Assembly: GCF_003991155.1 (NCBI RefSeq)
Contig: NZ_CP031293.1
Source: Escherichia coli
GTDB taxonomy: Bacteria > Pseudomonadota > Gammaproteobacteria > Enterobacterales > Enterobacteriaceae
Length of the DNA: 64,000 bases
Direction: 5' to 3' (one strand)
Of this stretch, positions 11,475-54,669 are shown piece by piece; position 1 is the stretch's first letter, and each line of letters begins with the position of its first letter. The notes beneath the pieces are model-generated. The model saw only the letters and a program-made list of their open reading frames with translations, was not told the origin of the DNA and ran no database searches. The position numbers and the translations under genes were made by a program.

Positions 11475-11480
11475 TTTAAA

Positions 11481-11496
11481 TGGTGCGATAATAGGA
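11481..11496. repeat. Distal att repeat: partial copy of thrW 3' end
   Basis: TGGTGCGATAATAGGA versus thrW 3' end TGGTGCCGATAATAGGAG at 31061-31078, same orientation. Confidence 0.55.
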
Positions 11497-11558
11497 ACAA
11501 TACACATAGGCGATAAGCTTTGTTTTTGTTGCCTTTTTTATTGTTCATTTTTTATAGA

Positions 11559-11578
11559 TACCCCCAAAAGTACCCCCA
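11559..11578. repeat. Arm-type motif TACCCCCAAAAGTACCCCCA near distal att
   Basis: Near-identical copy TACCCCCATAAGTACCCCCA at 30928-30947 near the thrW-proximal att. Confidence 0.4.
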
Positions 11579-11697
11579 TATCTTTTTCCGCCCCTGAAAT
11601 TTGGTTGTTATTCATACAGCATATCAGGCGGTAACGCTCTCCCTTTAACCCACTTATTGTATGATAGTGCTATCCCACAATAAGGAATCAGCCAGCC

Positions 11698-12057
11698 ATG
11701 AGAATGACCAGTCGCAAAAAAGAGATACTTAGCTACTTTGAACCGGATAACCTCGAATGGGTGACTGGTGAGATTGGTGCGCCGCCGTTCGATGTGTCGG
11801 GTGTGGCCTACCTGCTTCATGGCATGGTGTCGTTCGATAAGCGTCACCAGCTCGAATCAACCCGGCGAACACTGGAAAGCATGGTTGCTGGTGGACTGCT
11901 TGAGCGGGTGACAGTGTATGAATCGCGCCAGATACGGCGCGGCGGTGATACTAACGCAACGGTCGTGCGCTACGGTTTACCCGGTCAGTGCGCTGTTATG
12001 CGCGATACTGGCGGCGCTGACAACGCAATATCAGGTGAATACATGCGGGTCAGTTAA
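11698..12057 (+). CDS. Hypothetical protein (119 aa), island cargo
   Basis: ORF-track; convergent and overlapping stop with next gene; no recognised domain. Confidence 0.35.
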   Translation: MRMTSRKKEILSYFEPDNLEWVTGEIGAPPFDVSGVAYLLHGMVSFDKRHQLESTRRTLESMVAGGLLERVTVYESRQIRRGGDTNATVVRYGLPGQCAVMRDTGGADNAISGEYMRVS

Positions 12058-12592
12058 TAGCCTGCAATCTGTCGTTGATGCGGCTCAGGTCGTAAACCCG
12101 GCGTTCAATATCCAGCATCAGGAAATTGTGGATCTCGGCCTGCTCAGGATTATCAGACTCTCTGGCCTGTAATAGCAATTCATTGTAACCATGCAAGCCG
12201 CCTGAGTTTTCCGCCGGGGTGGTGCCTTTCCCACGCAGGCAGCTAATGGGCTGATTACTCGTATCGTGTGTTTGCTTCTCCAGCACAATGACGCAATCCC
12301 ACCAGTCGCCAAAGTCATACGTGTAAACCAGCTTGTCACCCTCATTCTGGAGCGCCGCCCATAGTGGCGTGATTGCCGCGTTACCCATGCTTTCATCCTC
12401 ACCCCATACGCGATACTCGCTACCTGGATCACCTTTACGCCCTTTCTCGAACATATACAGGTGTTCGTCATTCCAGCCAAAAGCTAACTGGATCACGGCA
12501 TGAAGTTTACTAAAGGGGATTTGCTCTGGAACCAGCACACGCCGCCATATAGGTGGTTTGCTGTCTCGGATGGTTATCTTTAGCTGGTACAT
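12050..12592 (-). CDS. pRiA4b ORF-3-like family protein
   Basis: 180 aa with signature MYQLKIT..PPIWRRVLVP...LHAVIQLAFGW...YTYDFGDWWDCVI typical of the plasmid pRiA4b ORF-3-like domain. Confidence 0.6.
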   Translation of the reverse strand: MYQLKITIRDSKPPIWRRVLVPEQIPFSKLHAVIQLAFGWNDEHLYMFEKGRKGDPGSEYRVWGEDESMGNAAITPLWAALQNEGDKLVYTYDFGDWWDCVIVLEKQTHDTSNQPISCLRGKGTTPAENSGGLHGYNELLLQARESDNPEQAEIHNFLMLDIERRVYDLSRINDRLQAIN

Positions 12593-12712
12593 GCAAATCC
12601 TGAATAAATGCGAATCGGAAGGATAACGATACTGACGTACTCACAATTCTGTAAAGGTGAATAAAGGAAATTTGCTTAATACGCATAAGTTACATGTGGA
12701 ATAATCCCATAT

Positions 12713-12898
12713 CTACCTGCGCGGCGCTGGCTTCTTCCACTGGTAGGCAGGTGCTCGCATCATTTCGCGGAACCTGTCGCGCCGGGCTATATCGGCATTA
12801 ACTGATCGTTCTATCTCCCGTTGATCTGCCTGTGTAAGCTGGTGGCCTCCGTGCTCAAGTTTGGCGATGGTCAATAAGGCTATTTCGCGTGGTGTCAT
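12713..12898 (-). CDS. Hypothetical small protein (61 aa)
   Basis: ORF-track only. Confidence 0.25.
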   Translation of the reverse strand: MTPREIALLTIAKLEHGGHQLTQADQREIERSVNADIARRDRFREMMRAPAYQWKKPAPRR

Positions 12899-13195
12899 AC
12901 GTCATACCCTCTGGAAGGATGAAACACGCCCGGATTAAATTTCATTTTTCGCGGGTATAAAAAAACGATGGGGCGGGCAGTCCCGGATAGTCAGGGCTGT
13001 AGAGATTTGACTACCCCCTCCCCACTGGATTCAGGTTACTGCTATTCCGTTAAGCGCTGCTTACGGGGATAGCTGCGTTGTGATTTTGACCATTCAGGTC
13101 GCCGCTATTTCCTCACCGATTGGGTGCTACGCGCGCGCGTACTTGTCCCGAAATACCAGAAACCGCCAGCCAGAGGATGATTTCCCTCTGGTGGT

Positions 13196-13477
13196 CTACC
13201 TTTGCCTCTTGCCGCCATTTAACCGGAAGGCGTTACCGTTCGGTTGCGCTATCCCCATGCGGTGTTGCGTTTCGGTAACAGCTTTATGCAGGTCGCCAAA
13301 TTCCTCAACCTTCACGGGCGGGCGCTTCACGTTCTCCAGACACGTTTCACGGCGGCGCTTTATCCATTCCCGATCATCGTCCTCGGTGCATAACAGCATG
13401 ACTTCCATCCATCGTGCGGCAGCTCTCCGGTATAGCCCTTTTGACTCCAGCTCTTCAGCTTTCCTGTCCCTTATCAT
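13196..13477 (-). CDS. PerC/Pch-family transcriptional activator-like protein
   Basis: 93 aa with ..ELESKGLYRRAAARWMEVM.. resembling the conserved PerC/Pch core. Confidence 0.55.
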   Translation of the reverse strand: MIRDRKAEELESKGLYRRAAARWMEVMLLCTEDDDREWIKRRRETCLENVKRPPVKVEEFGDLHKAVTETQHRMGIAQPNGNAFRLNGGKRQR

Positions 13478-13506
13478 TTCTGCCTCTCAGATTATATAGA
13501 TAAGCA

Positions 13507-13636
13507 AAAAGGTGTTGGTTCAGTTGGTTCAGTTGGTTCAATTTGTAAAGATCGTTGTTTTTATTGTGTTTTTTCTGAAATGTTGAACCAACATCAACTC
13601 ATTTTGAACCAACACAGCCCAGCTCTGAACCAACAA
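13507..13636. repeat. Iteron cluster A (GTTGGTTCA / TGAACCAAC repeats), left inverted repeat
   Basis: 13507-13550 is the exact reverse complement of 21756-21799; followed by AT-rich stretch and further TGAACCAAC-like repeats. Confidence 0.65.
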
Positions 13637-13748
13637 CACAGCGATAGCTTTGTGATTGGTCCGTTATTTTCTGGCTGATATTTGAGCGTATAACAGTGTT
13701 ATACAGTGGTATACTGTATGGATATTACTCACTGATATGGTCTTTGCA

Positions 13749-14192
13749 ATGAGCAAATCTAATCTGATCGCGTTCCGCATCCCATCTGAATTGCAGGATG
13801 AGTTTAATCGGTCTGTTCTCGCTTCTGGAGGGGATAAAACCTCCTGGCTTGTTGATGCGATTCGCATGAAGCTGGGACAGCCGGAAAAGTCTATTGATTC
13901 ACGAATGCTTGGGCTGGTGGAGCGCATGGAAAAAGCCGCTGCGTCGCTTATTGCCGGAAAGCCGAACATCCCACCAAAGCCATATAACGAAACGGCAGTT
14001 ATAAAGATCATTGCCGATACCATCCAACAGGGATTTGATAATGGGCGTGTGATAGCTGAACGGATCAATGAAGCAGGCTATCAAACAAAAGCTGGTAAAG
14101 CGTGGGATAAAGATATTTACAGCGCGTGGAAGCGTCAGGGAAGCAATGCTGAAAAGTTAAAAGCGGTGATTGATTGTAAGGTCAGCGTATAA
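13749..14192 (+). CDS. Putative ribbon-helix-helix DNA-binding protein
   Basis: N-terminus SKSNLIAFRIPSELQDEFNRSVLASGGDKTSWLVDAIRMKL is RHH-like; preceded by inverted repeat ATACAGT-N5-ACTGTAT at about 13700-13725; start 13737 or 13749. Confidence 0.4.
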   Translation: MSKSNLIAFRIPSELQDEFNRSVLASGGDKTSWLVDAIRMKLGQPEKSIDSRMLGLVERMEKAAASLIAGKPNIPPKPYNETAVIKIIADTIQQGFDNGRVIAERINEAGYQTKAGKAWDKDIYSAWKRQGSNAEKLKAVIDCKVSV

Positions 14193-14271
14193 ACATGAGT
14201 GCCCATTGGAAAGCTGCTTGGGCCAATACCTTTATACACCAGCAGGTGGTGACGATAGGTGAGGATTAGGC

Positions 14272-14493
14272 ATGAAAGGCAGAACGCCACACATTGAACA
14301 TCAAGCCAACCACTTCTCGGATGTTCGCAATGAGATGATTGCCATTCGCGGTGATATGCACGGCTTGGAGCGTCGAATTATTGATAAGATTGATGAAAAT
14401 AGAGATAAGGCCAGTGAAAATCAAAAGTGGATCATCGGCCTGTTGATTTTATCAATTCTTATCCCGCTACTTATCGCATTGGTCACAAAATGA
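14272..14493 (+). CDS. XhlA-like small membrane protein (coiled coil plus C-terminal TM)
   Basis: 73 aa; ..LERRIIDKIDENRDKASENQKWIIGLLILSILIPLLIALVTK matches XhlA/holin-like architecture. Confidence 0.4.
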   Translation: MKGRTPHIEHQANHFSDVRNEMIAIRGDMHGLERRIIDKIDENRDKASENQKWIIGLLILSILIPLLIALVTK

Positions 14494-15036
14494 ATATCCA
14501 ATGTGTATGCTGTCGATGCTACGCGCGCGTACTTGTCGCAAAATATCAGGCAAAGGCCAGATTCAGAAATTCGTGATAACCACCAGCACAACATGAGAGG
14601 TCATGTAACGCGATTTATCACACCAGATACATGTGATTGGTGTACCCGCATAAAACATCGTCATAGCGCGTCCTGTGCGCATATACGCCGATAATCAACA
14701 CATCACCACCACTCTGTCTCATGTAGAGAACAGTTTTATGGTACTCCCCTCCATCGTGCGCGTACTGGTCGGACGTAGTTGCAAAATTTTTTGCAACTGA
14801 TACCCCTCGCGCGCGTACTGGTCACGAAATTGGTGTTTTGCTGTGGCAGTGATATCAGAAAAATCTTCCTGTTTCACATAAAGCGGATATGCGCGTAATG
14901 TAACGGCCCCATCAACTGGGAGCGGATTTGAGCCCGAATGTGTAGGCAATGTCACTTAACGTTTGTCGCATACCTTCCAGAAAAAGCGATTCATGAATAA
15001 TAGGGGCATGAATGCCCGGCGTACCGGGCTTATTAG

Positions 15037-15735
15037 TTAATTTGGTGCTTTAGGGTCAACATTAAAAGTTATATCACCTTCTGTATTTTTCCCGGCATAG
15101 CTAGCGGCTATTCTCGCCAACCCTTTGTAATCAGCAATTCCATCAGACTGTTGCGAGACGACTGAGCTACCAACTTTCCATAACATATTAATCTGCCGAT
15201 TATTGAGATAAGCCTTGGCATCAAACGACTGGAGTATCACCCCTGCGCCGTAGAACGTGTCCGTCACAGTTGTGTTATACGCGCCAGTAATTCCATAAGT
15301 AGGCGTATAAACTGTTGTTGCCGTTCCAGTGGTATTAGCTGTACCGTAGCCACCACCATAACTATTGAACGTGGTGTTCGAGTTTCCGTACGTTGTTGCT
15401 GAGCTCACACCAGTTTGCCCGTATATTGGGATGGTTACATTACGAGTATTTGAAATGGCCCCGCTTCTCAAAAAGTTCAAGAGAATTACCTGGTCAGCCA
15501 ATTTTTCATCTTTAACTTGTGTATATCCTTGGCTTGATAAACTGGCGGCTACTACCGTAGCTATTTGAGTGTATTCAATCTGTTTGGTGTTCCAAAGTTC
15601 TTGGCTTGCGGGGATGATCAAGAACTTCTTACCGACAGATTGCCCGGAAGATAAAGCATTGACCGTTACTAACGGTTTTTGTACGCATCCAGCCAATAAT
15701 GACAGGGATAATATTAAAAGAAGATTTTTAATCAT
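15037..15735 (-). CDS. Lipoprotein, unknown function (Thr/Gly/Tyr-rich)
   Basis: Signal peptide with lipobox LLAGC; 232 aa. Confidence 0.6.
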   Translation of the reverse strand: MIKNLLLILSLSLLAGCVQKPLVTVNALSSGQSVGKKFLIIPASQELWNTKQIEYTQIATVVAASLSSQGYTQVKDEKLADQVILLNFLRSGAISNTRNVTIPIYGQTGVSSATTYGNSNTTFNSYGGGYGTANTTGTATTVYTPTYGITGAYNTTVTDTFYGAGVILQSFDAKAYLNNRQINMLWKVGSSVVSQQSDGIADYKGLARIAASYAGKNTEGDITFNVDPKAPN

Positions 15736-15885: not shown

Positions 15886-18612
15886 CTATTCCCATTCGCT
15901 AACATCTTTCATGCCACTGAGGGTAGCTACAATCCCGGCCCTTGTCAGTTTCACGAATTCTTCAGCCCCAACGGCATCACGAATTGCTTTCATGGCAATT
16001 TTATTGGCCGAAAATCGTTTCTCTGCTGCGGCGATCGCTGCTGGTGATGCCCCTGCGCGCACTGCTTTTGTAGCTTCCTGAACGGCTTTCTCTATCGCAT
16101 ATCGACCACTTCTTGTCGCCCCAATCTTAGCCACAGCATTTCTTAGCGCGCCACCAGCAACCAAACCACTAATCGAACCAATTACACCACCGCCAAAGCC
16201 TCCAGCGATCGCACCTGACTGTTGAACTCCGTTCATAATCACGCCGACGATCTTTGGAAGGCCTGAATCGAGCGTTTTGAGAGCCTCAGTTGTTCTTCCC
16301 GTGCGCTCTACGTATCGCTGCGGTCTGGTACTGGCTTTAGCGAGTACACCGAACTCTTTCATCATTCTACCGAGATCTGGCGCATGACGACTGATGGCGT
16401 TTACATTCTGCTGGGTCATGAGCTTGGCAAAATACTGGATACCTGACTCTTCACCGATTCCTCCCTTCTCTCCCTGCGCCACAGCATGCTGAAGAATAGA
16501 TGCTATTGCAGGTTGGCGTTCTGCTTCCGGCAGCGCGGAGATAAGACGGTGAAAAGCTCCCGTTCCAGTGTTTGCGGATGCCTTAAGCGTATCGGCACCT
16601 TTTCTTACCATAGCGTCTGATGCGAGATCTCGACCAAAAACAGATTCGGCATTTTGTTTGGCGATAATGTAACTTTTAGAGAGATCGTTAGCTTTCTGCC
16701 ATTCTGTGAGGAAGTTTCCTTTTTCAGCCATGATGCGCATGTCATCAGTGATAGCTCTGCGCATTTCTCCGGCAATCCGGGCGGCATTGGCCTTACCTGC
16801 CCGGGTGTTTGCTTGTTCAGCATCAGCAAACTTAGCACGCCATGCCTTCATCCCGTCGAAGGTTATGCCGCCACCTTGGTTGTTGGCAGCCTGAAACTGT
16901 TTCATCTCCGGGCTGAGTGGAACATTGGCTGCTTTTTCTGCTTGGACGACAGCCATCCCATTACTCATTTTCATCCTTTCGCGTGGCATCGTGCTTCGCA
17001 GTTCTGCCCATGCCATATTCTCTGCTGTTTTCATATCACTGAGGCTCGCGATGATGCGCTCTTTAATTGCTGCGCTTTTTTCTGATGCGCTTCCAGACTC
17101 AGCACCGAAATCAGACAACTGCTTATTCAACTTTGAGGATATTTCATTGAAGGCCGTAAGGTGAGCATCCTGAACATTCCCAGGAGTTGATGCCAGAACA
17201 CCTTCTGCTTGGGCAATTCCACGACTACCTGAGCGCATTCCAGGCGTCAGGGTGTTGATATTAATACCAGTGATTTTCGCCGCCTTAGCGACATCATCTC
17301 TGACGTTTGATGCCTGCGATGCGATATGCTCTCGGCCTACGGCAGAACGCGCTGCTTTCGATACATCATTGGCGGTTTCCAGAGTATTTGCTGCCCCTAA
17401 CACATGGCCTGATTGATTTGTATTACTCCGCAATACATCTCGCATTACGTCACTGGCTGTCTGTCCGCTCTTTATTAAAGCGCGTGCTCCTAGCGATCCT
17501 GCTAGGCCAATACCTGTCTCTTTTGCTAGGTCTTCTGGGCTGATCTGCCCGTTCTTTTGGGCGTTCACCAATGTACCTGGCAGGTTTTCTGCCAACATAC
17601 TAGCCACCTTTGTGGCCGCACGTTCAGCACGTGGAGCGTTGGCAACTGAAGAAGCTGCGGTAGCTGCCTTTCCTGCACCTAATCCTGTAATAAGGTAAGG
17701 TGCTAGCTGCTCACCAGCCTGCGCGTATGGATCTGTAGGTTGGTCTACTGGGCGAAAGACAGGTGATATGGGCGTGTATGTGCCATCACCCACACCAAGC
17801 TTCTGAGCTGCCCATGCTCCGGCTGATTGCGCCGCATTGACTACCCCCACGCCTGCGTCCATTACATCAAACGGTATATTAGCAATCCCTCTGGCCATCT
17901 GCTCTGGCGCAGCTTTCAGTCCTGGCGAAAGATATTCCATCTCAGGATTAAGGTTAGACTTGGCTACTTGCTGCTGCGGTTCCCCGGCATTTTCATCGGC
18001 GAGAAACTGAGCTCTTTTCTGCTCCCATGAACTGGCTGTTGGTAGTCCTGCTTCTATGTTCTTAAATTGCTGACGTTTTGCTTCCCATGCAGAAATATCT
18101 CCCACCTGAGAGATTTCTTTATCAAGCTCTGAGTAGTCAGGCTGCTGAAGATTGCGATGTTGACTGGTTTGTGCAAACTGCAAGATTTCACTGTCATCAG
18201 GGATTATTCCGGCATCTGCAAATTTACTTACGTAATTAGCCGTTTCATCTGGCAGTGTAGATTTACCGTTTCTGACGGCATTAATACGAGCATAGCCAGA
18301 ATTATACCCAGCCAATGCCATACCTATATCACCAAATCGCTTCATTCCTTTATTGAGATGGTTTGCTGCGATATCCATTTGCTTTTCAAATGGCAGTGAG
18401 CGCGGATCTGTTCCACGATAACCAGCATCACTCATTACTGAGGGCATCAGTTGAGCAAATCCTCTAGCTCCTTTCGGTGACTCGGCACTTCCGTTACCAC
18501 TAGATTCATTGCCAACTAATGTTTCCATCGTCCCTGATGGGAAACCATATTTTTCATCGAGATGACGGGAATAGGCTTTCTGTTTTTCTGTCAGTTGTGC
18601 CATCATTGCCAT
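15886..18612 (-). CDS. Large Ala-rich protein with N-terminal lytic transglycosylase (SLT) motif; phage internal virion/ejection protein-like
   Basis: 908 aa; N-terminus contains ESSGNG...GFAQLMPS...AGYNSGYARI (family-1 LT ES / GLMQ / AYNxG motifs); rest is long Ala/Gly-rich. Confidence 0.6.
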   Translation of the reverse strand: MAMMAQLTEKQKAYSRHLDEKYGFPSGTMETLVGNESSGNGSAESPKGARGFAQLMPSVMSDAGYRGTDPRSLPFEKQMDIAANHLNKGMKRFGDIGMALAGYNSGYARINAVRNGKSTLPDETANYVSKFADAGIIPDDSEILQFAQTSQHRNLQQPDYSELDKEISQVGDISAWEAKRQQFKNIEAGLPTASSWEQKRAQFLADENAGEPQQQVAKSNLNPEMEYLSPGLKAAPEQMARGIANIPFDVMDAGVGVVNAAQSAGAWAAQKLGVGDGTYTPISPVFRPVDQPTDPYAQAGEQLAPYLITGLGAGKAATAASSVANAPRAERAATKVASMLAENLPGTLVNAQKNGQISPEDLAKETGIGLAGSLGARALIKSGQTASDVMRDVLRSNTNQSGHVLGAANTLETANDVSKAARSAVGREHIASQASNVRDDVAKAAKITGININTLTPGMRSGSRGIAQAEGVLASTPGNVQDAHLTAFNEISSKLNKQLSDFGAESGSASEKSAAIKERIIASLSDMKTAENMAWAELRSTMPRERMKMSNGMAVVQAEKAANVPLSPEMKQFQAANNQGGGITFDGMKAWRAKFADAEQANTRAGKANAARIAGEMRRAITDDMRIMAEKGNFLTEWQKANDLSKSYIIAKQNAESVFGRDLASDAMVRKGADTLKASANTGTGAFHRLISALPEAERQPAIASILQHAVAQGEKGGIGEESGIQYFAKLMTQQNVNAISRHAPDLGRMMKEFGVLAKASTRPQRYVERTGRTTEALKTLDSGLPKIVGVIMNGVQQSGAIAGGFGGGVIGSISGLVAGGALRNAVAKIGATRSGRYAIEKAVQEATKAVRAGASPAAIAAAEKRFSANKIAMKAIRDAVGAEEFVKLTRAGIVATLSGMKDVSEWE

Positions 18613-21054: not shown

Positions 21055-21070
21055 GCGATGCCATCCATTT

Positions 21071-21232: not shown

Positions 21233-21685
21233 AACGCCCCCCTTAGAACTGTATAAAACAACAGTTATTATAGTTTCACAAATCGCAATATTCATCATCG
21301 TAATTGCAAAATATGAAACAAATAGCACAAAAAAATGCCACCGCTCAGTAGCTGGTGGCATCGTTCTGTGTGTCAGGTTTTGACAGGTTTTTTATGGACT
21401 CTAAAAACTATATTTATGGTATCGCATTACTCTTCACGGCAGGTGCTTTTCAGTTCTGCCCTTGCTTCTGGCTCCATTGGTAATTTGATTCGCGATCAGC
21501 TATGCGGATGGTTTGCTGAACAGGCATAACAACTTCTCAGAGGCTGTTTTTTGAACTACGAAAATTTCGTAGTGCTCACTTTCAAAAACGTCACGCCCTT
21601 GTACACAGGATTTTACGAAAGTCTCGTAAAACACTCTCTGATGCCAGCCAGGTGTTGTGCGCATCAATTCAGTCACATTGTGTCG

Positions 21686-21799
21686 GTTCAAAATACCGTG
21701 TTGTTGGTTCAGTGTTGGTTCAATAAAAAGAATAAAATCCTTATAAAACAATACACTTTACAAATTGAACCAACTGAACCAACTGAACCAACACCTTTT
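21686..21799. repeat. Iteron cluster B (TGAACCAAC repeats), right inverted repeat
   Basis: Three tandem 9-mers at 21762-21793; degenerate copies at 21686-21722; immediately 3' of the primase gene. Confidence 0.65.
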
Positions 21800-21817
21800 C
21801 TACGCACATGAAGAAGC

Positions 21818-24577
21818 TCATTCTTCAGATGAGTTATAATCTCCTGGCTGGTAATTGAGTACATAAACGTTTATTTGTCGTCCCTGAATACGTGGTGATT
21901 TTCTTTGGTATCCACGACCGCTGTTTGGTGGGGTTAGCATCCCGGCTTTTTTCAACACTTCAGCAAACTGTTTTGCGTTGAAACCACATGCGATCTCCTT
22001 TTCAAATGTGGCCGGGAATGTGTAGAAAATCATTGGGCTTTCGTCATGTTCTCCACGCTGACGGTATCCGGCTAAATCTTTGATGGGCAAATCTGCCGGG
22101 CTGTATGGAAATGGTGCAAAACGGCTAAGCCCATAGGCATTAAGAAATGCCTCCGTTTGTTCAATAATCTGCTGATGCTCTTTGTTACCTGTGCCGAACT
22201 CGCGCAACCATGCGTTATAGCTGTGCTGTATCGCATCACGGCATGTCTGAGCATCCCAGCCTGTTACAACCTCGCCTAACAACAATGCGGCCTCCAGAAT
22301 GGCAAATCGCGCGGCTACACGGTGAACCTGCTCACCATAATCGGATGGGATCAGGCTTCTCCATCTGCTTTCGCAATCACGAACGGTTTTAATAGCCTGT
22401 TGCTGGTGGTGTGCCAGCCATTTAATCCACTCACGCCCGGACGCGCCGTGGTGATGCTGGTAAGCGTCTTTCAGTGCGTCTGCGTGCTGTTTTCCGTTCT
22501 GGTAATCGTGAAAGCGTACTGCTTTACTCAACGGAATATTCAGCAGTCGCACCAGTTGCCCGGCTTTGGTTTTTCGCCCGGAAGTAGCGATAAATGTTTC
22601 TAAATCCATTTCTCCGGTGCTGATTGCCACTGTACGCCAGCGTTTTAGATCCCGGTTTCCACCATCTTTAGCGCCTTGCAGTTTCCCTACACCGTTAAAT
22701 AACGCATAGGCAGACTGTGAAACGCTGACAGGATCAGCGCCCTGACCAACTTCATCAAGCGGCATTAGTCCGTCATTGTGGGCGGCGGCCTCATTTGCCA
22801 GCCCCAGCGCGGTTCCGTACCACGTCAGCCGCAGTAAATCAGGGTTGCCGTATAAGCTGCTCGCCACGTTTGCCGTGGTGGTCTTACCTGCGCTCGACTG
22901 CTCATAGAAATGAATGCCGAACCCGTCAGCGCCCACCAGCCCAATCAATGGCGCTGCCAGTGCTGCGCCGATCCCGGTCATCATTGAATAGTTACCAAAG
23001 GCCAGACGCGCCACGTTATCACGCCAGCTTTTCGCGCTCCCTGAGACGGTATATCCGGCTGCGGCTGAGCTTCTCCCGCTGAACAGCACAGGATTTTCAG
23101 GTGTTCCGATGATTTCCCCATCAGGCATGATGTACGCTCCGCATTGCCAGCCAGTGGCATGAGCAACACGCCACAATTCACGAGAGCCACTGCGTTGTAG
23201 CCAGTCTGCCAGTATTGCTCTGAGGCTGCTTTTGGTCGTGACATTTACCCCACCAGCTTTAAGTGTGCGCCATCCTTCACGTTCACCAATATCAGCCAGT
23301 GGAATGGCAGCGGTTGTCGGCGTTTCAGAACCAAACGACAGCCAGCGAAGAATGAGATACTGGTCTTTATCGTCTCTGCCAGTACCGATAACGCTTAACG
23401 GAGAACATAACCAGCTTTCGTTATTGATGATTTCTCCACTCTGGCTGTCAGCTCTCGGAGATACCCAATAAATACCATCCTCGCGGCTTTCTATTCTTGG
23501 TTTCAGTGGGTCGGTATCCATAACCTTAAAATCGCTTCCCTCAATGGTCTGTGGCTCCTGTTTCACGCCATTACCCTGTGGTTGGTACATTGACTTATTG
23601 AACGCTTCTGTGGCGCATTTAATGCCGTGTTTTTGGTGGTAATCATTCCAGTCTGCTTTGTGATCTGTCGGGGGTAATGCCACCCATCCAGAAACAGATA
23701 AAGCTGCTTTTTCTGCTGCTATTCTCCCCGTGTTTTGTCTTCCTTCGCTGTGGTCGTTATCCGCAGCAATGATGATTTGTGCTGAAGGAAATTTATCCCG
23801 CAGTACCTGGGCGACATATAACAGGTTCCCGGCATCAATCGCCGCCACTGTCAGCGCCTCTGGACGAATTAAATGGGCAGATAATGCCGTTGCCAGACCT
23901 TCTGCGATTAAGATGCTCTGTGTTGTTTCTGGTGCGTTTATGGCGTGATATGCCCCCCGCTTTGCTGAACCTGTCAGGAGTCTTTTTTCACCATGTGAGG
24001 TAATAGTCTGTGCTGCTGTGACTGCGCCGGATTTATCCACCAGCGCCAGCAACAGAGATCCATCGGGCAACACGGGGAATGTAAAATCACCTACCCCTTT
24101 CGCAACCAGATAATCAGATTTGCCGTTTACAGCCTTTCTGCGCATGTCATCAAACTGACGGGAAAACGTATCCCGTCTTTGTTGTTCGTCCTTCTCTGCC
24201 CTTTTCAGGCGCTCCTGTTCGCGTCGCTGGCGCTCGGTTTCCAGTTGTTCCCGTTTCTGGCTGGTGGCTTCTGGTGTTTCCGTTGTCCGGTAATCAATAC
24301 CCAGAACATCAGCGGCAAGAAGCGCCGCCTCTGTTGTGTCGCAGTTATTTACGCGTTTAATTAAATCCAGCCCATCACCAGCGCCGCACTGATTACAGAT
24401 GAAGCTACCGCGCCCGTTGTCATCGAACCGGAATCGATCTTTGCCCCCACATGCAGGGCAGGGAGCATGACGGCGCGGAGAGTCAGGGACATTTATGTTC
24501 AGGCAGCCCAGCACATGAGGCCAGTTGTTTTCAGACGCACTGATAACCTGACGGATAAGATCAATGTTTCGCATCAC
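21818..24577 (-). CDS. P4 alpha-like primase-helicase (zinc finger + toprim + P-loop NTPase)
   Basis: 919 aa; CPACGG..CNQCG zinc-binding motif, toprim-like IIIAADNDH, Walker A SSAGKTTT and Walker B LMPLDEV. Confidence 0.8.
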   Translation of the reverse strand: MMRNIDLIRQVISASENNWPHVLGCLNINVPDSPRRHAPCPACGGKDRFRFDDNGRGSFICNQCGAGDGLDLIKRVNNCDTTEAALLAADVLGIDYRTTETPEATSQKREQLETERQRREQERLKRAEKDEQQRRDTFSRQFDDMRRKAVNGKSDYLVAKGVGDFTFPVLPDGSLLLALVDKSGAVTAAQTITSHGEKRLLTGSAKRGAYHAINAPETTQSILIAEGLATALSAHLIRPEALTVAAIDAGNLLYVAQVLRDKFPSAQIIIAADNDHSEGRQNTGRIAAEKAALSVSGWVALPPTDHKADWNDYHQKHGIKCATEAFNKSMYQPQGNGVKQEPQTIEGSDFKVMDTDPLKPRIESREDGIYWVSPRADSQSGEIINNESWLCSPLSVIGTGRDDKDQYLILRWLSFGSETPTTAAIPLADIGEREGWRTLKAGGVNVTTKSSLRAILADWLQRSGSRELWRVAHATGWQCGAYIMPDGEIIGTPENPVLFSGRSSAAAGYTVSGSAKSWRDNVARLAFGNYSMMTGIGAALAAPLIGLVGADGFGIHFYEQSSAGKTTTANVASSLYGNPDLLRLTWYGTALGLANEAAAHNDGLMPLDEVGQGADPVSVSQSAYALFNGVGKLQGAKDGGNRDLKRWRTVAISTGEMDLETFIATSGRKTKAGQLVRLLNIPLSKAVRFHDYQNGKQHADALKDAYQHHHGASGREWIKWLAHHQQQAIKTVRDCESRWRSLIPSDYGEQVHRVAARFAILEAALLLGEVVTGWDAQTCRDAIQHSYNAWLREFGTGNKEHQQIIEQTEAFLNAYGLSRFAPFPYSPADLPIKDLAGYRQRGEHDESPMIFYTFPATFEKEIACGFNAKQFAEVLKKAGMLTPPNSGRGYQRKSPRIQGRQINVYVLNYQPGDYNSSEE

Positions 24578-24932
24578 CGTACCCCACGTGGTCTATAGCG
24601 TTTGCGATATGGCTAACCAGCATCTGCCACTTGGTTATTCCGTAATCAGTCAGCATGCCATCATTGTTTAGCCACATATCAAATTCAGCGGTTGTCGCAA
24701 GTTTCCACTTATCGCCGTGGACAGTCCTCATTGCTGGGTACATGAATGCGCAAATCAGATCACAAACATCTGACGGCTTCAGAGATGTAGTAATGGTGCG
24801 TCCCTCTGGCGTCTGAATTGCCATTTTCTCTTCACCAGTAGAATGAAGGTTATGAATCCACACAGCACCAGCAATCTTTGCCACCTGCTCTCCGATTGCG
24901 GAGCTAAGCGCCATTTCTGCATTTTCACGCAT
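24561..24932 (-). CDS. Hypothetical protein (123 aa)
   Basis: ORF-track; overlapping stops/starts with neighbours. Confidence 0.35.
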   Translation of the reverse strand: MRENAEMALSSAIGEQVAKIAGAVWIHNLHSTGEEKMAIQTPEGRTITTSLKPSDVCDLICAFMYPAMRTVHGDKWKLATTAEFDMWLNNDGMLTDYGITKWQMLVSHIANAIDHVGYGDAKH

Positions 24933-25266
24933 GAGAACCTCCCGCTACAGTTGCGCCCATGTCATTAACCATGCTTTGCCATATCTCACGCCCGACGTCA
25001 GTCAATCCGTCCTTAGTGACGCAACGTTCAAGAAGCTCGATCCCCACGGTTTCCCACTGCGGGTAGAACACTTTCATGGCTGCCAGTGTGTAGCTATCGA
25101 TCAGGCTGCGAACGCCTTTTACTCCATTGACGATTTCCACACGGACGGCCTCGCCGTCCGCATCAACCATGAAATAGTCCCCGCCGCTGGTGGAGGTAAT
25201 GTGGTTATACAGTGCCGACGCATACTTATTTGCCAGCGCATTCAGTCGGAAATTTTTAGTAATCAT
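24925..25266 (-). CDS. Hypothetical protein (113 aa)
   Basis: ORF-track. Confidence 0.35.
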   Translation of the reverse strand: MITKNFRLNALANKYASALYNHITSTSGGDYFMVDADGEAVRVEIVNGVKGVRSLIDSYTLAAMKVFYPQWETVGIELLERCVTKDGLTDVGREIWQSMVNDMGATVAGGSHA

Positions 25267-25276
25267 GGCTCCATCC

Positions 25277-25879
25277 TCAGTGCGTCACTGGTTCCGCTGG
25301 CATGCCGTTTTCATTCAGTTCAGCTATAAAGCTGTTGTGAAGTTCAGCAAGCGTTTCACGCCCAAATGGAGTCAGTGCTCCTTGTTCCACATCCATCATG
25401 GCTCTGTAGAAAATAATGGCGCGTTCTGTGCCAGACTCGATGCCAAAACGTTCTATCATCGCGCCCTCAATGTTGTTTGCCATAGCGAGGCGCTCTGCTA
25501 CTGGATACAGCGGCATGGCGACGATGCCGTTGGAATAAACAGCCACTTCGGAAGGATTGCCAGTATCATCAATGATGCTGACAGTGCCGTTTTCCTCTCT
25601 CATTTCCAGCATGAATACTGTTGCGATCAGCCATCTCCACATAATGACGTTATGCTGTGATGTGTAATCGAAATATCCCTGGTTACCGCCATCGGCAATA
25701 GCGAGATGTATTGACATACCTTCATCTGGTTTATCGTCATAATCCCCGGCATCCAGACGATTTACGGCATCAATATATGAGATGGCCTCAACGCGTTCTG
25801 TCATGCCATCGTTGCTGCGGTACATGATGTTTACGCCGTCAGGCGTTGCTTCTGCATGGAAAGTTAAGAAATTATTCAT
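25277..25879 (-). CDS. Hypothetical protein (about 200 aa)
   Basis: ORF-track frame 25277..25984; likely start at internal Met (MNNFLTFHAE...). Confidence 0.35.
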   Translation of the reverse strand: MNNFLTFHAEATPDGVNIMYRSNDGMTERVEAISYIDAVNRLDAGDYDDKPDEGMSIHLAIADGGNQGYFDYTSQHNVIMWRWLIATVFMLEMREENGTVSIIDDTGNPSEVAVYSNGIVAMPLYPVAERLAMANNIEGAMIERFGIESGTERAIIFYRAMMDVEQGALTPFGRETLAELHNSFIAELNENGMPAEPVTH

Positions 25880-26093
25880 GTTTCGCCTCGCCTGAATGAT
25901 TCTGTAACTCATATTTGCCCAACAATTCGTCCGCTTCCTGAATAGCTTCTGGTACGCCATTGAGCAGTGACATAACCGCGCCAATCATTAACTTGTCTCT
26001 GTTGCTGGGGCTGGCCCCTTCAAGCCAGAACCCTAAAACAGTCTGAACCTGTTCGATGCGACATTGCGCTTCAATGAGCTGGATGTTGGTCAT
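25872..26093 (-). CDS. Hypothetical small protein (73 aa)
   Basis: ORF-track; 4-nt overlap with upstream gene. Confidence 0.3.
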   Translation of the reverse strand: MTNIQLIEAQCRIEQVQTVLGFWLEGASPSNRDKLMIGAVMSLLNGVPEAIQEADELLGKYELQNHSGEAKHE

Positions 26094-26353
26094 TTCGCAC
26101 TCTCCACATCGATTAAACCGATATCTATCAGGGAGGTAACTTTTTGTAGCCAGCTATTGATTACTGTCGCCTGTTCCCCTCCCACCGAGGGAACAATCTC
26201 ATTCATCACATGAACCAGACCTGTGCGCGCTCTGGTAAGCCGTTCAGTCGCGCAATCTGCGGGAGTGAATGTGTCTGGATATGGCTCTTCACGCCCCAGC
26301 AATGATTCAATTTCCAGCTCACACGGATGACGATAAATTAAGTTGATATTCAT
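26090..26353 (-). CDS. Hypothetical small protein (87 aa)
   Basis: ORF-track; ATGA-type overlaps. Confidence 0.3.
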   Translation of the reverse strand: MNINLIYRHPCELEIESLLGREEPYPDTFTPADCATERLTRARTGLVHVMNEIVPSVGGEQATVINSWLQKVTSLIDIGLIDVESAK

Positions 26354-26544
26354 TTTTCACCCCCAAGAATTACCAGCTCGGCACGGGCATCGTTAACCAA
26401 AGATGAGCACGCTTTAATCGCATCCACGACATCAGCAGCGTCCATTTCTTCAGCCGAAAGACTGACAGCAACCAGGACAGCCGCTGCTTGCTCGATTAAT
26501 TGAAGTGCGGACGTAAGTCGAGGGGCATTAATTGAGTTATTCAT
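26350..26544 (-). CDS. Hypothetical small protein (about 64 aa)
   Basis: Internal start [10 protein letters not shown]... in track ORF 26350..26601. Confidence 0.3.
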   Translation of the reverse strand: MNNSINAPRLTSALQLIEQAAAVLVAVSLSAEEMDAADVVDAIKACSSLVNDARAELVILGGEK

Positions 26545-27604
26545 TGGTTGCCCCCGTTTTTCCTGGCATTTCGCCACCTTCCAGCAGGAAATGAACGTCA
26601 CGAACGGCGAGATCCAATATCGCGAGTAACGCCTTCAGTCTTTCGTCTCGTGAGGGAGAGTTGCTCACCAGAATGTCGTTAATCACTTCTGTCAGTGTGA
26701 TGATCTGGCTTGTGCGTTCGAGGGGATCCATATGCACATCGTAGGTTTTAATCATGAGCCACCTCCATGCGGATACGACCAGCAAAAAAGCAGACGTGAT
26801 CGCGCACCAGAGAACGGCGAGCATCGCGTTCAGACTCGGCAGCAATATGATGAATTTTGGCGGTAATTGTCGAGCAATCGCGGCGAACTGCGGCGATAAT
26901 CCAGATAAATTGCGGTTTTTGGGTAGGGGTAGTAGCCAGCATGTGGCAGCCTCCATTCGATAGCATGTAACGCTACCACCGGAAACGCCAATTTCGCTGG
27001 TGGTAGCCCAGACAGGGTTGGCGTAACCGGCTCGAATGGATACCGGCGCTTCCGAAGAAGCCCCTGCCTGAGCCACCATTGATTGACAAAGGCGCTGGAT
27101 TATACACCAACGCCCAAAAAATGGGTGAGTCAGACCTACGACATAAAAAAAGACGCTCGGCGCGTCATATGTCGCCATTCGATTTACTAGGACGCCAATC
27201 CCGGCACCCGTTTTATGAGGTGCCTTATAACCATAAACCGTGTTGCCGCATAACGGCAAGCTCTTTTTTATGGACTCCGAAAACTCGCTATTGGAAGCAC
27301 CAGATGCACAGTACATCGCGCTCATTTCGTTAACGTCACGCGCGTGGACGAATGTTTTTGTGGAGTCACTACACGAGCGGAAGACATCATCTACGACCAG
27401 AAATTTTCTGGCGCAGCCGCTGACCTTCTCAATGCTAATATCATCGCCCGAGATTTCTGATATGGTTAAGGCATCCGTTCCGACCACCAGCAAATGATAA
27501 ACTTTGCTTGTATCTGCTGTATTAATGCCTGACTTTGCCGTCATATTGCTGGATTTTGGCGACATACCAGCCAGTGAAAATGTCTTCTTCTGGACGGTTA
27601 GCAT
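26537..27604 (-). CDS. Long open frame of uncertain gene structure (possibly a 72-aa gene 26537..26755 plus upstream gene)
   Basis: 355 codons without stop; composition atypical in middle part; start overlaps stop of upstream gene. Confidence 0.25.
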
Positions 27605-27780
27605 TTGTTAACCTCCGCGAACTCCTTCATGAAACGCGCCAGCGGTTGTACGCATGGCGATTGATACCCGTCGCGATAAAACGTCACTCGGTTGTGAGAC
27701 ACGCTTTCGACAGTAACGAGTGCTCCGTGGGCATCTTTGTAGCGTTTTTGTGGTTGTGGTGTTCCTGTTGGCTTAGACAT
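27598..27780 (-). CDS. Hypothetical small protein (about 60 aa)
   Basis: Internal start MSKPTGTPQPQKRYKD... with GGAGGTG Shine-Dalgarno upstream. Confidence 0.3.
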   Translation of the reverse strand: MSKPTGTPQPQKRYKDAHGALVTVESVSHNRVTFYRDGYQSPCVQPLARFMKEFAEVNKC

Positions 27781-28606: not shown

Positions 28607-28618
28607 TTTCAGTCTCCG

Positions 28619-29050
28619 TTAGGCGGCGTTAAACGCGTCCGGGTAGAGTTTCAGAATGTCGGCAATTTCCTGCTGAGAAAGTCCGTTGTGATCATTTATG
28701 TTCGCAAGATGGTTAATATGAGTGATCACTTTCAGAACATCACCACGGCAGGAGAAACGGTAGCGAAGGTGTGTTCCGATACCATCAGGATTCTTTTCGT
28801 CGATACGCTCCAGAGTGATTCCAAGCTGGCGTTCTAACTCTGTTGCATAGTTACGACCAGAAGACAGACGGCAGTAGCGAAGAATGTCATTTTCTGTCCA
28901 TCCCTCTATACCAGTACGCAGCATATAGACTCTGGCACGATGCTTTTTCGGTGTGCGCTTTGGTGCTTGAAGGGATTTTGTAAGGGGCGTAACATCAGAT
29001 ACACGAATATCTGAATTAGCCGCCTGTAATGGGCGGTTTTTCTTTTCCAT
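28619..29050 (-). CDS. Hypothetical protein (143 aa)
   Basis: ORF-track; immediately downstream of alpA. Confidence 0.35.
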   Translation of the reverse strand: MEKKNRPLQAANSDIRVSDVTPLTKSLQAPKRTPKKHRARVYMLRTGIEGWTENDILRYCRLSSGRNYATELERQLGITLERIDEKNPDGIGTHLRYRFSCRGDVLKVITHINHLANINDHNGLSQQEIADILKLYPDAFNAA

Positions 29051-29253
29051 CAGGCCACCTCGTCTCTAGATTCTAATATACACTTCTCAATCCATTCATC
29101 TATTTCAGACTCAACAAAAGCAATTGCCCGACTTCCAATTTTTACCTGTTTAGGGAACCTCCCCTGACTAATAAGACGATAAATCCATGCTTTGCTATAA
29201 CCAGTTCGCCTTTGAACTTCAGAGAGACGAATTAATGAATTGTAATTAGCCAT
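29050..29253 (-). CDS. alpA: AlpA-family transcriptional regulator/excisionase-like
   Basis: 67 aa MANYNSLIRLSEVQRRTGYSKAWIYRLISQGRFPKQVKIGSRAIAFVESEIDEWI; classic AlpA HTH. Confidence 0.75.
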   Translation of the reverse strand: MANYNSLIRLSEVQRRTGYSKAWIYRLISQGRFPKQVKIGSRAIAFVESEIDEWIEKCILESRDEVA

Positions 29254-29680
29254 TTATTAATATCCTGTACTAATGACGCAATAACCCCCTCCTGCAACGA
29301 ATGGCGAGAGTTTTATTTGCGTCAAATGTCGAATACGCCAAAGACCACAATATGAAAAACATATTGCGGTCTTTTATAAAAGATAGTCAGATTGTTTTGG
29401 TTTGTTTGCTCCACAAGGGTAGAGCTACCCTGCATTTCGGCAGGATCACGCTATTAGGCGTGACATCCAGTAGTTTTAAAGAACAATTGCGCTTTGTCAG
29501 CGCCAAAGCCTGTTAAAGAACATTCCGCTTTTCAGCAGCGTAGAAGGCTCAATACACCTTCGTTTATAAAAGAGCGATTGCCCTTCTCCAGGGCTAACTG
29601 TTAAATAGCAATCCTCTGTGAGTTTTTATCAATCTACTCCCCTATACTTTAGTAAACCTCTGTATACTTGTCCAGTTGTT

Positions 29681-30895
29681 TCATGCGTGTTTTTCAAACA
29701 CCATATGCACCACATTTCCGCCATGCTCGAGAGAATCCATATAGTCGGCATACCATTGAAGCATCTCCCGCCGTCCATCCAGATATTGCGCATGGTTGTA
29801 TGTGCCACGAATTGAGTTCTTATCAACGTGAGCGAGCTGCGTTTCTATCCACGCGGTGTTATAGCCCTGCTCATGCAAAATCGTGCTCATAGTGTGTCGG
29901 AACCCATGACCAGTTACACGTCCAGCGTAGCCAATGCGCTTAAACACTTGGTTTATGCTGGCCTCACTCATTGTTTTCCTTGGATCATTGCGCCCGGGAA
30001 ACATAAGAGGGTAATTGCCTGTTATTTCTCTAATCTTCCCAATAAGCGAAAGAGCCTGCTCAGACAATGGCACAATATGAGGCCGCCGCATTTTCATACG
30101 TGAAGCGGGTATCTCCCATATAGCCTTGTTGAAATCAATTTCATCCCATAATGCGCCACGTAGTTCGCCAGTTCGCAAGCCGGTGATAATCAGTAGACGA
30201 GCCGCCATAACAACCAATGCGCTTCCTGAGTAACTGGACAATGCCTTGAAAAAATCAGGTAATTCTTTGGTCGTAAGGAAAGGGTAATGATTAGATTCAT
30301 GGCCTTGCATCGCGCTAGTAAGGTCTGGTGCAGGGTTATACTCTGCGCGACCAGTGACTATTGCATAGCGGAAAACTTCCCCGCACCGCTGCCTCACTTT
30401 TTTGGCTTTTTCTGTCGCACCGCGCCCCTCGATGCGCCGCAGCACATTCAGAAGTTCAAGTGGTTTGATTTCGGCGATTGGTTTTTTGCCAATGTAAGGG
30501 AACACATCTTTGTTGAAGGCTTCGAGGATGTCTGAAGCATAACCAGCAGACCATTTTTTTAATTTGCTGCTGTGCCACTCAAGGGCAATATCTTTGAAGG
30601 TGTTGTTTAACTGCGTTTCCCGGGCAATCTTTTCCTCTCGTTTCGCTTCCATCGGATCGATACCACCAGCGATACCTCTTTTCGCATCTTCACGTTTTGC
30701 CCGAGCATCGGCTAGAGTAACCTCAGGATACACACCTAGTGCCAATAGCTTCTCTTTACCAGCTACACGATATTTAAGTCGCCAGTATTTACCTCCATTA
30801 GGTTTTACCAAGAGATACAAACCGCCACCATCGGCCAGCTTGTAAGCCTTCTCTTTTGGCTTGGCTGTGTCTATTTGACGGGCATTGAGTTTCAC
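29681..30895 (-). CDS. P4-type tyrosine integrase, thrW-adjacent
   Basis: 404 aa; N-terminal arm-binding domain (..KLADGGGLYLLVKPNGGKYWRLKYR..) and catalytic HGFRHT...Y motifs; adjacent to tRNA. Confidence 0.85.
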   Translation of the reverse strand: MKLNARQIDTAKPKEKAYKLADGGGLYLLVKPNGGKYWRLKYRVAGKEKLLALGVYPEVTLADARAKREDAKRGIAGGIDPMEAKREEKIARETQLNNTFKDIALEWHSSKLKKWSAGYASDILEAFNKDVFPYIGKKPIAEIKPLELLNVLRRIEGRGATEKAKKVRQRCGEVFRYAIVTGRAEYNPAPDLTSAMQGHESNHYPFLTTKELPDFFKALSSYSGSALVVMAARLLIITGLRTGELRGALWDEIDFNKAIWEIPASRMKMRRPHIVPLSEQALSLIGKIREITGNYPLMFPGRNDPRKTMSEASINQVFKRIGYAGRVTGHGFRHTMSTILHEQGYNTAWIETQLAHVDKNSIRGTYNHAQYLDGRREMLQWYADYMDSLEHGGNVVHMVFEKHA

Positions 30896-30965
30896 TTGGG
30901 GGTACCTCCACTAAACCGAACAGCAAATACCCCCATAAGTACCCCCATCTGACCGTAGATTTTGA

Positions 30966-31043
30966 GGGACTTTAGTAGACGTCAAAAGACGAACGGGGCT
31001 TTAATACGCGGATTATAAGGGGTTTTGAAAGACTTTAGTAGAC
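30966..31043. promoter_or_regulatory. attL arm region with direct repeats GACTTTAGTAGAC x2
   Basis: Copies at 30967-30980 and 31031-31043 between integrase start and thrW; putative arm-type binding sites. Confidence 0.4.
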
Positions 31044-31060
31044 TTGGGGAGATGTTTGAA

Positions 31061-31136
31061 TGGTGCCGATAATAGGAGTCGAACCTACGACCTTCGCATT
31101 ACGAATGCGCTGCTCTACCAACTGAGCTATATCGGC
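31061..31136 (-). tRNA. thrW: tRNA-Thr (anticodon CGU)
   Basis: Reverse complement GCCGATATAGCTCAGTTGGTAGAGCAGCGCATTCGTAATGCG...GGTTCGACTCCTATTATCGGCACCA. Confidence 0.9.
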
Positions 31137-54668: not shown

Positions 54669-54669
54669 T

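Follow-up and report, generated by a model that had tools for sequence, protein, structure and literature searches.

Satellites are known to hijack their helper phages by remodelling the helper capsid, as in P4, the Staphylococcus aureus pathogenicity islands (SaPIs) and the phage-inducible chromosomal island-like elements (PLE), or through capsid formation, as in the capsid-forming phage-inducible chromosomal islands (cf-PICIs). P22 is the classic generalised transducer, and to our knowledge no satellite of P22-like phages is known; a search of the literature for satellites of such phages, or for satellites with ejection or tape measure proteins, found none. Here we examine a 64,000-nucleotide stretch of the Escherichia coli contig NZ_CP031293.1 (hereafter the window), in which an island of 19,597 bp lies between two copies of the 3' end of the tRNA gene thrW (Table 1). 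We hold, with modest confidence, that this island is a satellite of P22-like (Lederbergvirus) phages, with a maintenance and replication core of P4 type, and that it recombines at the last 17 nucleotides (nt) of thrW. Its gene content suggests a way of parasitising P22-type phages that has so far not been described.

Among described systems, the element would seem to work most like P4, with which it shares an integrase beside a tRNA gene, an AlpA/Vis-type regulator, an immunity RNA of the CI/C4 family, a primase N-terminus related to alpha (33% identity), two separated iteron clusters resembling ori and crr, and an apparent helper packaging signal carried without a terminase gene of its own. 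It differs from P4 in lacking homologues of sid, delta, psu and epsilon as well as the P2 cos, in the DUF927-type helicase part of its primase, in a signal resembling a P22-type pac, in possessing ejection genes, which are absent from P4, and in a size of about half a helper headful rather than that of a small capsid. Gram-negative phage-inducible chromosomal islands (PICIs) such as EcCICFT073, whose helpers are lambdoid cos phages, have the same int-alpA-primase layout, are likewise fixed at one chromosomal att site and also lack genes for lysis and capsids, whereas the present element is larger (19.6 kb) and carries C4/isrK RNA immunity and an ejection operon; with regard to the PICI packaging module, no terS or capsid PHROG was matched by its open reading frames (ORFs), in a comparison that included no specific search for Rpp and Ppi. 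SaPIbov5-type cos islands and laboratory plasmids with a cloned P22 pac are likewise packaged through a copy of a helper site and have no small terminase of their own, but the site considered here would be a headful pac derived from inside a helper terS gene, in Enterobacteria, and is sometimes present as a tandem array. Plasmids of the latter kind were reportedly found by Schmidt and Schmieger in 1984 to be transduced at high frequency.

Two further comparisons concern parts of the element. With P22-like prophages it has in common genes 14-7-20-16 in order, mosaic gp20 and gp16 alleles, a gene 14/7 region like that of Kapi1 and Louie, and a gp16 with a soluble lytic transglycosylase (SLT) domain like that of Dewey and Huey; unlike them, it is devoid of terminase, portal, scaffold, coat, tail, tailspike, lysis and lambdoid regulatory genes, with terS represented by 107 nt only. 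In the immI region of P1 (c4-icd-ant) and the isrK-anrP locus of Salmonella, too, a single operon contains a C4 RNA with an icd-like ORF behind it, together with an antirepressor gene and an isrK-like RNA, although in the element the antirepressor gene precedes the RNAs and the operon forms part of a satellite backbone.

A preliminary description of the window had placed an element of about 19.6 kb in thrW, bounded by a repeat of the tRNA 3' end, and had noted a 16-bp partial copy of thrW at its far side. Both points were borne out by ARAGORN, by pattern search and by the islands that other strains carry at the same junction, the partial copy being the 17-nt 3' end minus one base. The pattern TGGTGC[N0-1]GATAATAGGA matched the 64-kb window only at the two core sites, and was not matched in any of 100 shuffles. 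The repeat represents a genuine recombination junction, because other strains hold different islands at that exact point. In strain 2016C-3878 the left flank is 100% identical through position 11480, after which come 37 nt of the thrW 3' end and then a different element, and in SK1144 45 nt of the thrW 3' end at this junction precede yet another element; the junction at 11481 is thus shared with other thrW islands (loci L003 and L004). The chance that the repeat was coincidental, raised in the preliminary description, is thus countered by the shuffles, the shared junction and an attP contig described below. Strain STEC383 carries a 99.9% identical island adjoining yagP-paoD instead, and a comparison with E. 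coli genomes, which had been proposed at the outset, found at least 80% of the island in 48 of 5,426 complete genomes. The thrW island is very probably a mobile, att-bounded element.

The repeat had also been described as lying just before the yagU-side core, a placement that has to be corrected: the K-12-like yagU core stops at 11049, and the intervening flank (11050-11480), from which pao and yagP are absent, holds an ORF and the pseudogene of an older integrase (remnant at 11263-11474). This flank is common to about 1,200 complete E. coli genomes, in which different thrW islands abut it. Since both flanks of the window (11050-11480 and 54600-63000) are 100% identical to 2016C-3878 (NZ_CP029747.1) yet the occupants differ, that of 2016C-3878 encoding an integrase, a GNAT protein and a major capsid protein, the comparison points to recent turnover at thrW and suggests a very recent island swap within one clone. 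Strain MP1 carries the element in tandem with a vat islet. The GC content of the element, 48.1%, equals that of its flanks and is uninformative.

The same tRNA hotspot and att core are used by CP4-6 of K-12 and by the pathogenicity island VAT-PAI of avian pathogenic E. coli (APEC) O1. As the preliminary description had it, the occupant here is not that of K-12, where CP4-6, a 34-kb cryptic prophage of unrelated gene content, and the pao genes are found; pao is absent from the window. A characterised family to which the island might belong was sought and none was found. Identity with VAT-PAI was considered and rejected, as the thrW island genes of APEC O1 differ, vat is located there in a separate tandem islet, and the window contains no vat. 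The APEC O1 thrW island (L155; NC_008563, 295,000-315,000; published as 20 kb) comprises a small element with major capsid and baseplate proteins, plus a vat-vatX islet with an integrase N-terminal remnant, and looks like a tandem array of two elements.

Evidence bearing on excision came from a search with the predicted joined-end pattern, which matched one public contig, IMGVR_UViG_2617270975_000009 (21,415 bp; L074/L077). Its junction reads GATGTTTGAA, the intact 17-nt core TGGTGCCGATAATAGGA and then ACAATACACATAGG, which is the attP form, and the contig is a circular permutation running from window position 21418 down to 11475, through the 17-nt core, and from 31077 down to 21414. The contig begins and ends with the same 391 nt, a signature of circular assembly. 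The attP junction and the identical ends support excision and show that the element can exist with its ends joined. A short repeat, ATACCCCCAWAAGTACCCCCAT, was found by repeat search just inside each end of the element, and this and the other terminal repeats of Table 1 are probably arm-type recombinase sites. The same contig has an insertion sequence of about 1.3 kb near window position 21414, with an apparent 3-bp target duplication, which interrupts the interval between the primase gene and the ejection operon.

Downstream of the primase gene lie full-length homologues of P22 gp14, gp7, gp20 and gp16 in phage gene order. Compared with the DNA transfer proteins of P22-like phages from E. coli and Salmonella, the gp16 homologue shows 47-52% identity (47% over 97% of its length to the Dewey/Huey protein), and its N-terminal SLT domain (Pfam, amino acids (aa) 15-117, E 3.8e-12) is fused to gp16 in Dewey and Huey too; in gene 14/7, DNA identity to phages Kapi1 and Louie is about 90%. 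Across the four genes, 32 synonymous and 12 non-synonymous differences separate the window from the MP1 allele, and the resulting ratios of non-synonymous to synonymous substitution (dN/dS) of 0.10-0.14 indicate purifying selection, which speaks for functional ejection genes; the corresponding values for the integrase and primase are 0.03 and 0.13. At least three allelic sets of ejection genes are found on near-identical backbones, at thrW and beside yicC. Variants at thrW encode either all four proteins, with gp20 of 473 aa and gp16 of 701 aa, or only a gp20 of 488-492 aa and a gp16 of 701 aa, and one thrW variant has an Abi pseudogene. This operon, a pac-containing terS fragment and the C4/isrK RNAs are features beyond those given in the preliminary description that point to the phages exploited, and it is from sequence that we infer a satellite function for the element.

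The terS fragment is a non-coding 107-nt copy of the P22-type small terminase gene, 91.6% identical to Dewey and CurroJimenez_Bas106, 90.7% to IME10 and 86% to P22. The pac site of P22 comprises 22 bp, nt 268-289 of gene 3, as annotated in phage g341c, and its sequence is confirmed in PMC5261728. Because the fragment starts at nt 268, its homology to terS begins at the first base of pac. Its first 22 nt, GAATGTTTTTGTGGAGTCACTA, align with pac at 16 of 22 positions in Dewey and 15 of 22 in P22, and the 85 nt that follow are identical to Dewey at all but three (82/85). In a survey with the Dewey gene as query, the full terS gene was present, among the matches listed, in 257 E. coli genomes, as prophages; also among the matches listed, about 346 further E. 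coli genomes (about 6% of complete genomes) possessed nt 268-374 only, always with these boundaries, at 84-93.5% identity, and within 'ash/Icd' loci. Alleles of the fragment are mosaic, those of the window and Z1323CEC0013 being Dewey-like and those of MP1 and D8 P22-like. All four nevertheless agree in the centre of the 22-mer, GTTTTTGTGGAGTCAC; the fragment therefore exchanges sequence with phages and retains its own core. A second pac-like 22-mer is kept downstream of the ejection module in all module-bearing related elements. We lean towards the view that P22-like phages package the element through this pac-like site. The earlier characterisation of the gene content as P4-like or PICI-like without psu, sid, delta or terS genes consequently needs qualifying: none of the 30 element ORFs compared with PHROGs matched sid, delta, psu, epsilon, terminase or capsid functions, but DNA derived from terS is present (27350-27456).

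The occurrence of the pac-like motif (the 22-mer with at most 4 mismatches) was then tallied over 134 loci of the wider family, assembled through a primase search. All nine loci with P22 ejection genes carry the motif, compared with 0/26 loci with siphovirus tape-measure modules, 1/29 with tape-measure/hub modules and 10/70 with neither module, one of these ten being a truncated view of the circular contig, whose complete sequence includes the ejection module. The association between motif and ejection genes has a nominal hypergeometric p of about 6e-9, by arithmetic from the 134-locus counts, and argues that the motif is specific to a helper type and is not a general signal of the backbone. 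In relatives, one to five tandem units of the form GAAGRTTTT-N5-6-RTCACYACRCGAG, each 24/28 identical to the Dewey pac region, are located just upstream of isrK. Strain D8 (L156) has this backbone and pac fragment, together with an ejection operon, beside yicC; this copy carries an unrelated integrase, indicating that the integration module was swapped. Elements of Limnobaculum and Kosakonia (L041, 8807-8967; L014, 6666-6755) contain three to five tandem pac-like units, spaced at about 30-37 nt, directly upstream of the isrK homologue.

The position of these units allows for a different role, in which they would serve as regulatory sites or iterons of the isrK/C4 leader, or in which the 107 nt would provide homology for cointegrates with the helper that are packaged from the helper's own pac. 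The units are tandem, resemble the isrK 5' end and lie in the leader just upstream of it, a similar leader piece precedes the ejection operon, and the mosaic alleles show that recombination with phage terS occurs. We nevertheless regard such a role as distinctly unlikely: the motif is missing from 54 of 55 tape-measure relatives on the same backbone, the unit agrees at 24/28 positions with the pac region of Dewey-type terS, which is defined by experiment, in E. coli the motif belongs to a clear 107-nt terS copy beginning at nt 1 of pac, and no complementarity to the C4 RNA was seen by eye. The idea of the motif as a target of the C4 RNA was set aside; an RNAduplex scan was uninformative on it, as the best value (-49.2) did not stand apart from the shuffle minimum (-48.7). 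Parts of the isrK leader (27264-27285 and 27325-27359), among them the isrK 5' end, recur just before the ejection operon at 21388-21409 and 21580-21614, which hints at joint regulation of both operons. Rfam searches for additional isrK or C4 copies, ahead of the ejection operon and at 14.3-15.1 kb, returned chance matches only.

The remainder of the backbone was annotated by comparing the element ORFs with PHROGs and the RNAs with Rfam, with names taken from the RefSeq annotation; PHROG and RefSeq together agree with the integrase, AlpA, antirepressor, small ORFs and primase named in the preliminary description. Two iteron clusters, the second inverted relative to the first, constitute a putative bipartite origin like the ori and crr of P4. 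The 19-mers of P2 and PSP3 cos, with up to 3 mismatches, had no match anywhere in the 64-kb window. A 355-aa ORF annotated as an 'ash family protein' (26537-27604, minus strand) was rejected as a real regulator, with the isrK and C4 RNAs lying inside it on the same strand; it overlaps these RNAs and is probably an annotation artefact, and RefSeq marks it as a pseudogene in several strains. The 'ash' family and phrog_6928 may have been built in part on translations of the isrK/C4 RNA locus.

From these components we propose the following life cycle for a satellite of P22-like phages. Integrase and AlpA would excise the element as a circle, in keeping with the attP contig, and, by homology, the primase and the two iteron clusters would replicate it, while the C4/isrK RNAs, Icd and the AntA/AntB-family antirepressor would provide immunity and possibly derepress a resident helper, much as epsilon does in P4. 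A helper with a P22-type small terminase would recognise the pac-like site in the 107-nt copy of the pac region, and concatemers of the element would be packaged headful into normal helper capsids at about 2.2 copies per head. As the element would fill about 0.45 of a P22 headful with its 19.6 kb, no capsid remodelling would be needed, and the proposed cycle includes no redirection of capsid size. Finally, the gp14-gp7-gp20-gp16 operon may load these capsids with satellite-encoded ejection proteins that build a DNA conduit across the periplasm, for which the most likely gain would be entry to cells that block the conduit of the helper itself, such as lysogens expressing SieA. SieA blocks injection via gp20 and gp16, and transducing particles are excluded by it (Leavitt et al., PMC10461980). 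Very different E-proteins assemble into P22 virions, replace P22's own and partly escape SieA, and Ltp and HK97 gp15 target tape measure proteins (PMC10461980). That the ejection proteins serve to bypass exclusion is put forward here as a tentative proposal.

Alternatively, the ejection operon, perhaps together with the lipoprotein gene that follows it, may be anti-phage or interference cargo whose gp7, gp20 and gp16 homologues, produced in the host cell, poison the loading of P22-like procapsids or the assembly of the conduit, with the effect of protecting the host or lowering helper yield, while the element spreads by other means. Satellites carry defence hotspots, and here the module lies in the variable region after the primase, where relatives hold other cargo. 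It is followed by the lipoprotein, which weakly resembles TraT, a thrW variant has the Abi pseudogene mentioned above, and in one relative a protein named for 'immunity to superinfection' adjoins a tape-measure gene. Interference cargo would not, however, require the whole operon in phage order, including the gp14 assembly factor, nor its co-occurrence with the pac-like site in 9/9 loci, and no PADLOC family was matched. Moreover, poisoning is not expected, given that divergent E-proteins assemble and work in P22 virions (PMC10461980). We consider this alternative unlikely.

Several observations weigh against a P22-dependent satellite packaged at the pac-like site. Headful packaging needs concatemers, whereas the replicon of the element appears to be of P4 type. 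The circular contig could also represent a tandem array, and two patterns for the attP junction had no matches in the Joint Genome Institute (JGI) metagenomes scanned. The pac-like 22-mer differs from known pac at 6-7 positions, its centre GTGGA being specific to the element, and among the pac sites compared no phage with a matching pac was found. The fragment at 27350-27456 is inverted relative to most relatives, with the 14847-14868 site facing the opposite way. Furthermore, three element-bearing genomes have no P22-type terS prophage among the matches listed, and the association of pac with ejection genes rests on only about 3-4 independent lineages.

Some of the same points might be read as signs of a composite, essentially dead island, formed when a P4-like element acquired scraps of a P22-like prophage by illegitimate recombination, in which case the scraps would have no role and phages would not mobilise it. 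Decayed islets do lie in tandem at the thrW hotspot, examples being the vat islet of MP1 and the integrase remnant at 11263-11474, and the pac-like core matches no known pac exactly. Against decay, the ejection ORFs are intact in at least 48 genomes with dN/dS of about 0.1, alleles have been swapped repeatedly on one backbone, the module and fragment are also found at a second integration site, and the boundaries of the non-coding fragment are identical in about 346 genomes, among the matches listed. A circular attP form exists, and distant relatives hold analogous tape-measure modules. On this evidence a dead island is very improbable.

Relatives of the satellite candidate were collected by a primase search of one-genome-per-species bacterial assemblies, which gave 64 loci, about 54 of them clear family members and all from Enterobacterales, and of IMG/VR, where 80 of 199 stretches were kept. 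The family shares its backbone and varies in the region after the primase, where many relatives encode virion DNA-delivery proteins of other phage types. L087 (15436-18147) and L012 (17561-20557) encode a tail-completion protein and siphovirus tape measure proteins 900-1,000 aa long. In L139 (12245-16210) and L114 (12092-16096) a baseplate hub accompanies tape-measure or lytic tail proteins, and a terS gene is sometimes present in modules of this type; in these relatives, from Klebsiella and other Enterobacterales, complete tail or head modules are absent. From a few module queries only, a DNA-delivery module was detected in 17 GTDB loci and 47/80 IMG/VR loci. In L016, from Lonsdalea, a 17.6-kb element bounded by an exact 17-nt thrW repeat contains the module; att repeats were sought in 10 relatives and were clean only in this one and in L013 (15 nt). 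When the Klebsiella relative L087, which has a tape-measure module, was compared with phage DNA, only tRNA matches were obtained.

About 6-7% of complete E. coli genomes contain a member of the element family, which is also found in many other Enterobacterales. Possibly, and we advance this as a conjecture, it constitutes a large family of P4-like satellites not recognised as such, which combine a DNA-delivery conduit of their own (P22-type ejection or siphovirus tape measure proteins) with a mimic of the helper packaging signal and do without capsid remodelling. Because conduit proteins are the targets of SieA, Ltp and HK97 gp15, such satellites could inject into the helper lysogens that they need and that exclude transducing particles; a private injection conduit would therefore account for both ejection and tape-measure modules. 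If this is correct, replaced injection machinery would be a third hijacking strategy beside capsid remodelling and capsid formation, and satellite biology would be linked to superinfection exclusion. Headful packaging would also gain a natural case of pac-site mimicry, and there would be a reason for gp16 and gp20 to rank among the most variable P22 virion genes and an explanation for the fast turnover at the thrW hotspot beside virulence islets such as vat.

Table 1. Features of the thrW element and its immediate borders (window coordinates).
Feature	Position	Strand	Evidence and remarks
thrW, tRNA-Thr(CGT)	31061-31136	-	ARAGORN; Rfam tRNA, 71.8 bits
attL core, last 17 nt of thrW, TGGTGCCGATAATAGGA	31061-31077	plus-strand reading	Pattern search
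TTTTGARRGACTTTAGTAGAC, two copies near attL	30960 and 31023 (within 30927-31043)		Repeat search family D14/D19
ATACCCCCATAAGTACCCCCAT, repeat near attL	30927-30948	+	Recurs at 11558-11579 near attR; repeat search family D14/D19
Tyrosine integrase, 404 aa	29681-30895	-	phrog_1, E 1.5e-77; RefSeq; transcribed away from thrW
AlpA/Vis-like excisionase-regulator, 67 aa	29050-29253	-	phrog_66, phrog_2790 ('excisionase and transcriptional regulator')
Conserved 143-aa protein	28619-29050	-	Precedes antirepressor gene
AntA/AntB-family antirepressor, 277 aa	27773-28606	-	phrog_5817, E 2e-37; RefSeq name
DUF4222 protein	27598-27780	-	Follows antirepressor gene; RefSeq name
Non-coding 107-nt copy of P22-type gene 3 (terS), nt 268-374	27350-27456	+	Antisense to element operon
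isrK-like small RNA	27146-27223	-	Rfam RF01394, 60.5 bits (gathering score 50)
C4 antisense RNA (family of P1 c4 and P4 CI immunity RNAs)	26996-27083	-	Rfam RF01695, 79.5 bits (gathering score 45)
Icd-like ORF	26748-26966	-	Follows C4 RNA; RefSeq 'Icd-like'
Six small conserved ORFs	24561-26544	-	Upstream of primase
Primase-helicase, TOPRIM + DUF927, 918 aa	21818-24574	-	phrog_1139, E 2e-178; aa 7-361 32.9% identical to P4 alpha, C-terminal 550 aa unalignable to alpha
Iteron cluster, TGAACCAAC repeats	21679-21799	.	Just downstream of primase; repeat pairs I1-I3, I5, I7
Conserved 53-aa ORF	21071-21232	-	Upstream of gp14-like gene
P22 gp14-like head-morphogenesis protein, DUF2824, 153 aa	20593-21054	-	phrog_651, E 1e-66; dN/dS 0.14
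P22 gp7-like ejection protein, 225 aa	19922-20599	-	phrog_598 'DNA ejection', E 3e-70; dN/dS 0.10
P22 gp20-like ejection protein, 439 aa	18603-19922	-	phrog_917, phrog_2534; RefSeq 'phage DNA ejection protein'; dN/dS 0.11
P22 gp16-like DNA transfer protein, 906 aa, N-terminal lytic transglycosylase fusion	15886-18606	-	phrog_770, E 5e-121; dN/dS 0.10
232-aa lipoprotein (signal peptide, lipobox LLAGC)	15037-15735	-	Directly after gp16 homologue; from translation
Second pac-like 22-mer, GAAGATTTTTCTGATATCACTG	14847-14868	-	Orientation as in most relatives
Second iteron cluster, inverted relative to 21679-21799	13507-13639	.	Repeat search
Distal cargo region	11497-14493	mixed	RefSeq names; PHROG
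PerC-family regulator	13196-13477	-	Distal cargo
pRiA4b ORF-3 family protein	12050-12592	-	Distal cargo
119-aa ORF	11698-12057	+	Distal cargo
61-aa ORF	within 11497-14493		Distal cargo
151-aa and 73-aa ORFs	within 11497-14493	+	Distal cargo
attR core, 16-nt copy of thrW 3' end with one C deleted, TGGTGCGATAATAGGA	11481-11496	+	Pattern search
Outer flank remnant, outside element: 62-aa ORF and C-terminal pseudogene of older integrase	11050-11480	+	Between yagU core and attR

The lipoprotein encoded after the gp16 homologue has only weak matches to TraT and DUF4136 (E about 0.1) and none in PHROG, NCBIfam or PADLOC. It is a candidate surface or entry-exclusion protein, and occupies what we take to be the place of sieA in P22. 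Neither the lipoprotein nor the small ORFs gave anything significant in PADLOC, NCBIfam or Pfam, and the distal cargo region was likewise without a PADLOC match. The sequence GACCAGTACGCGCG (minus-strand reading) occurs four times in the cargo (13132-13159, 14522-14549 and 14734-14835), and in relatives it flanks the pac-like units. Elsewhere in the window, two tRNA-Asp genes (54670-54746 and 62893-62969) lie 8.2 kb apart, and the DNA between them is core (mltD, yafC, dkgB and yafD), present in 5,414 of the 5,426 genomes.

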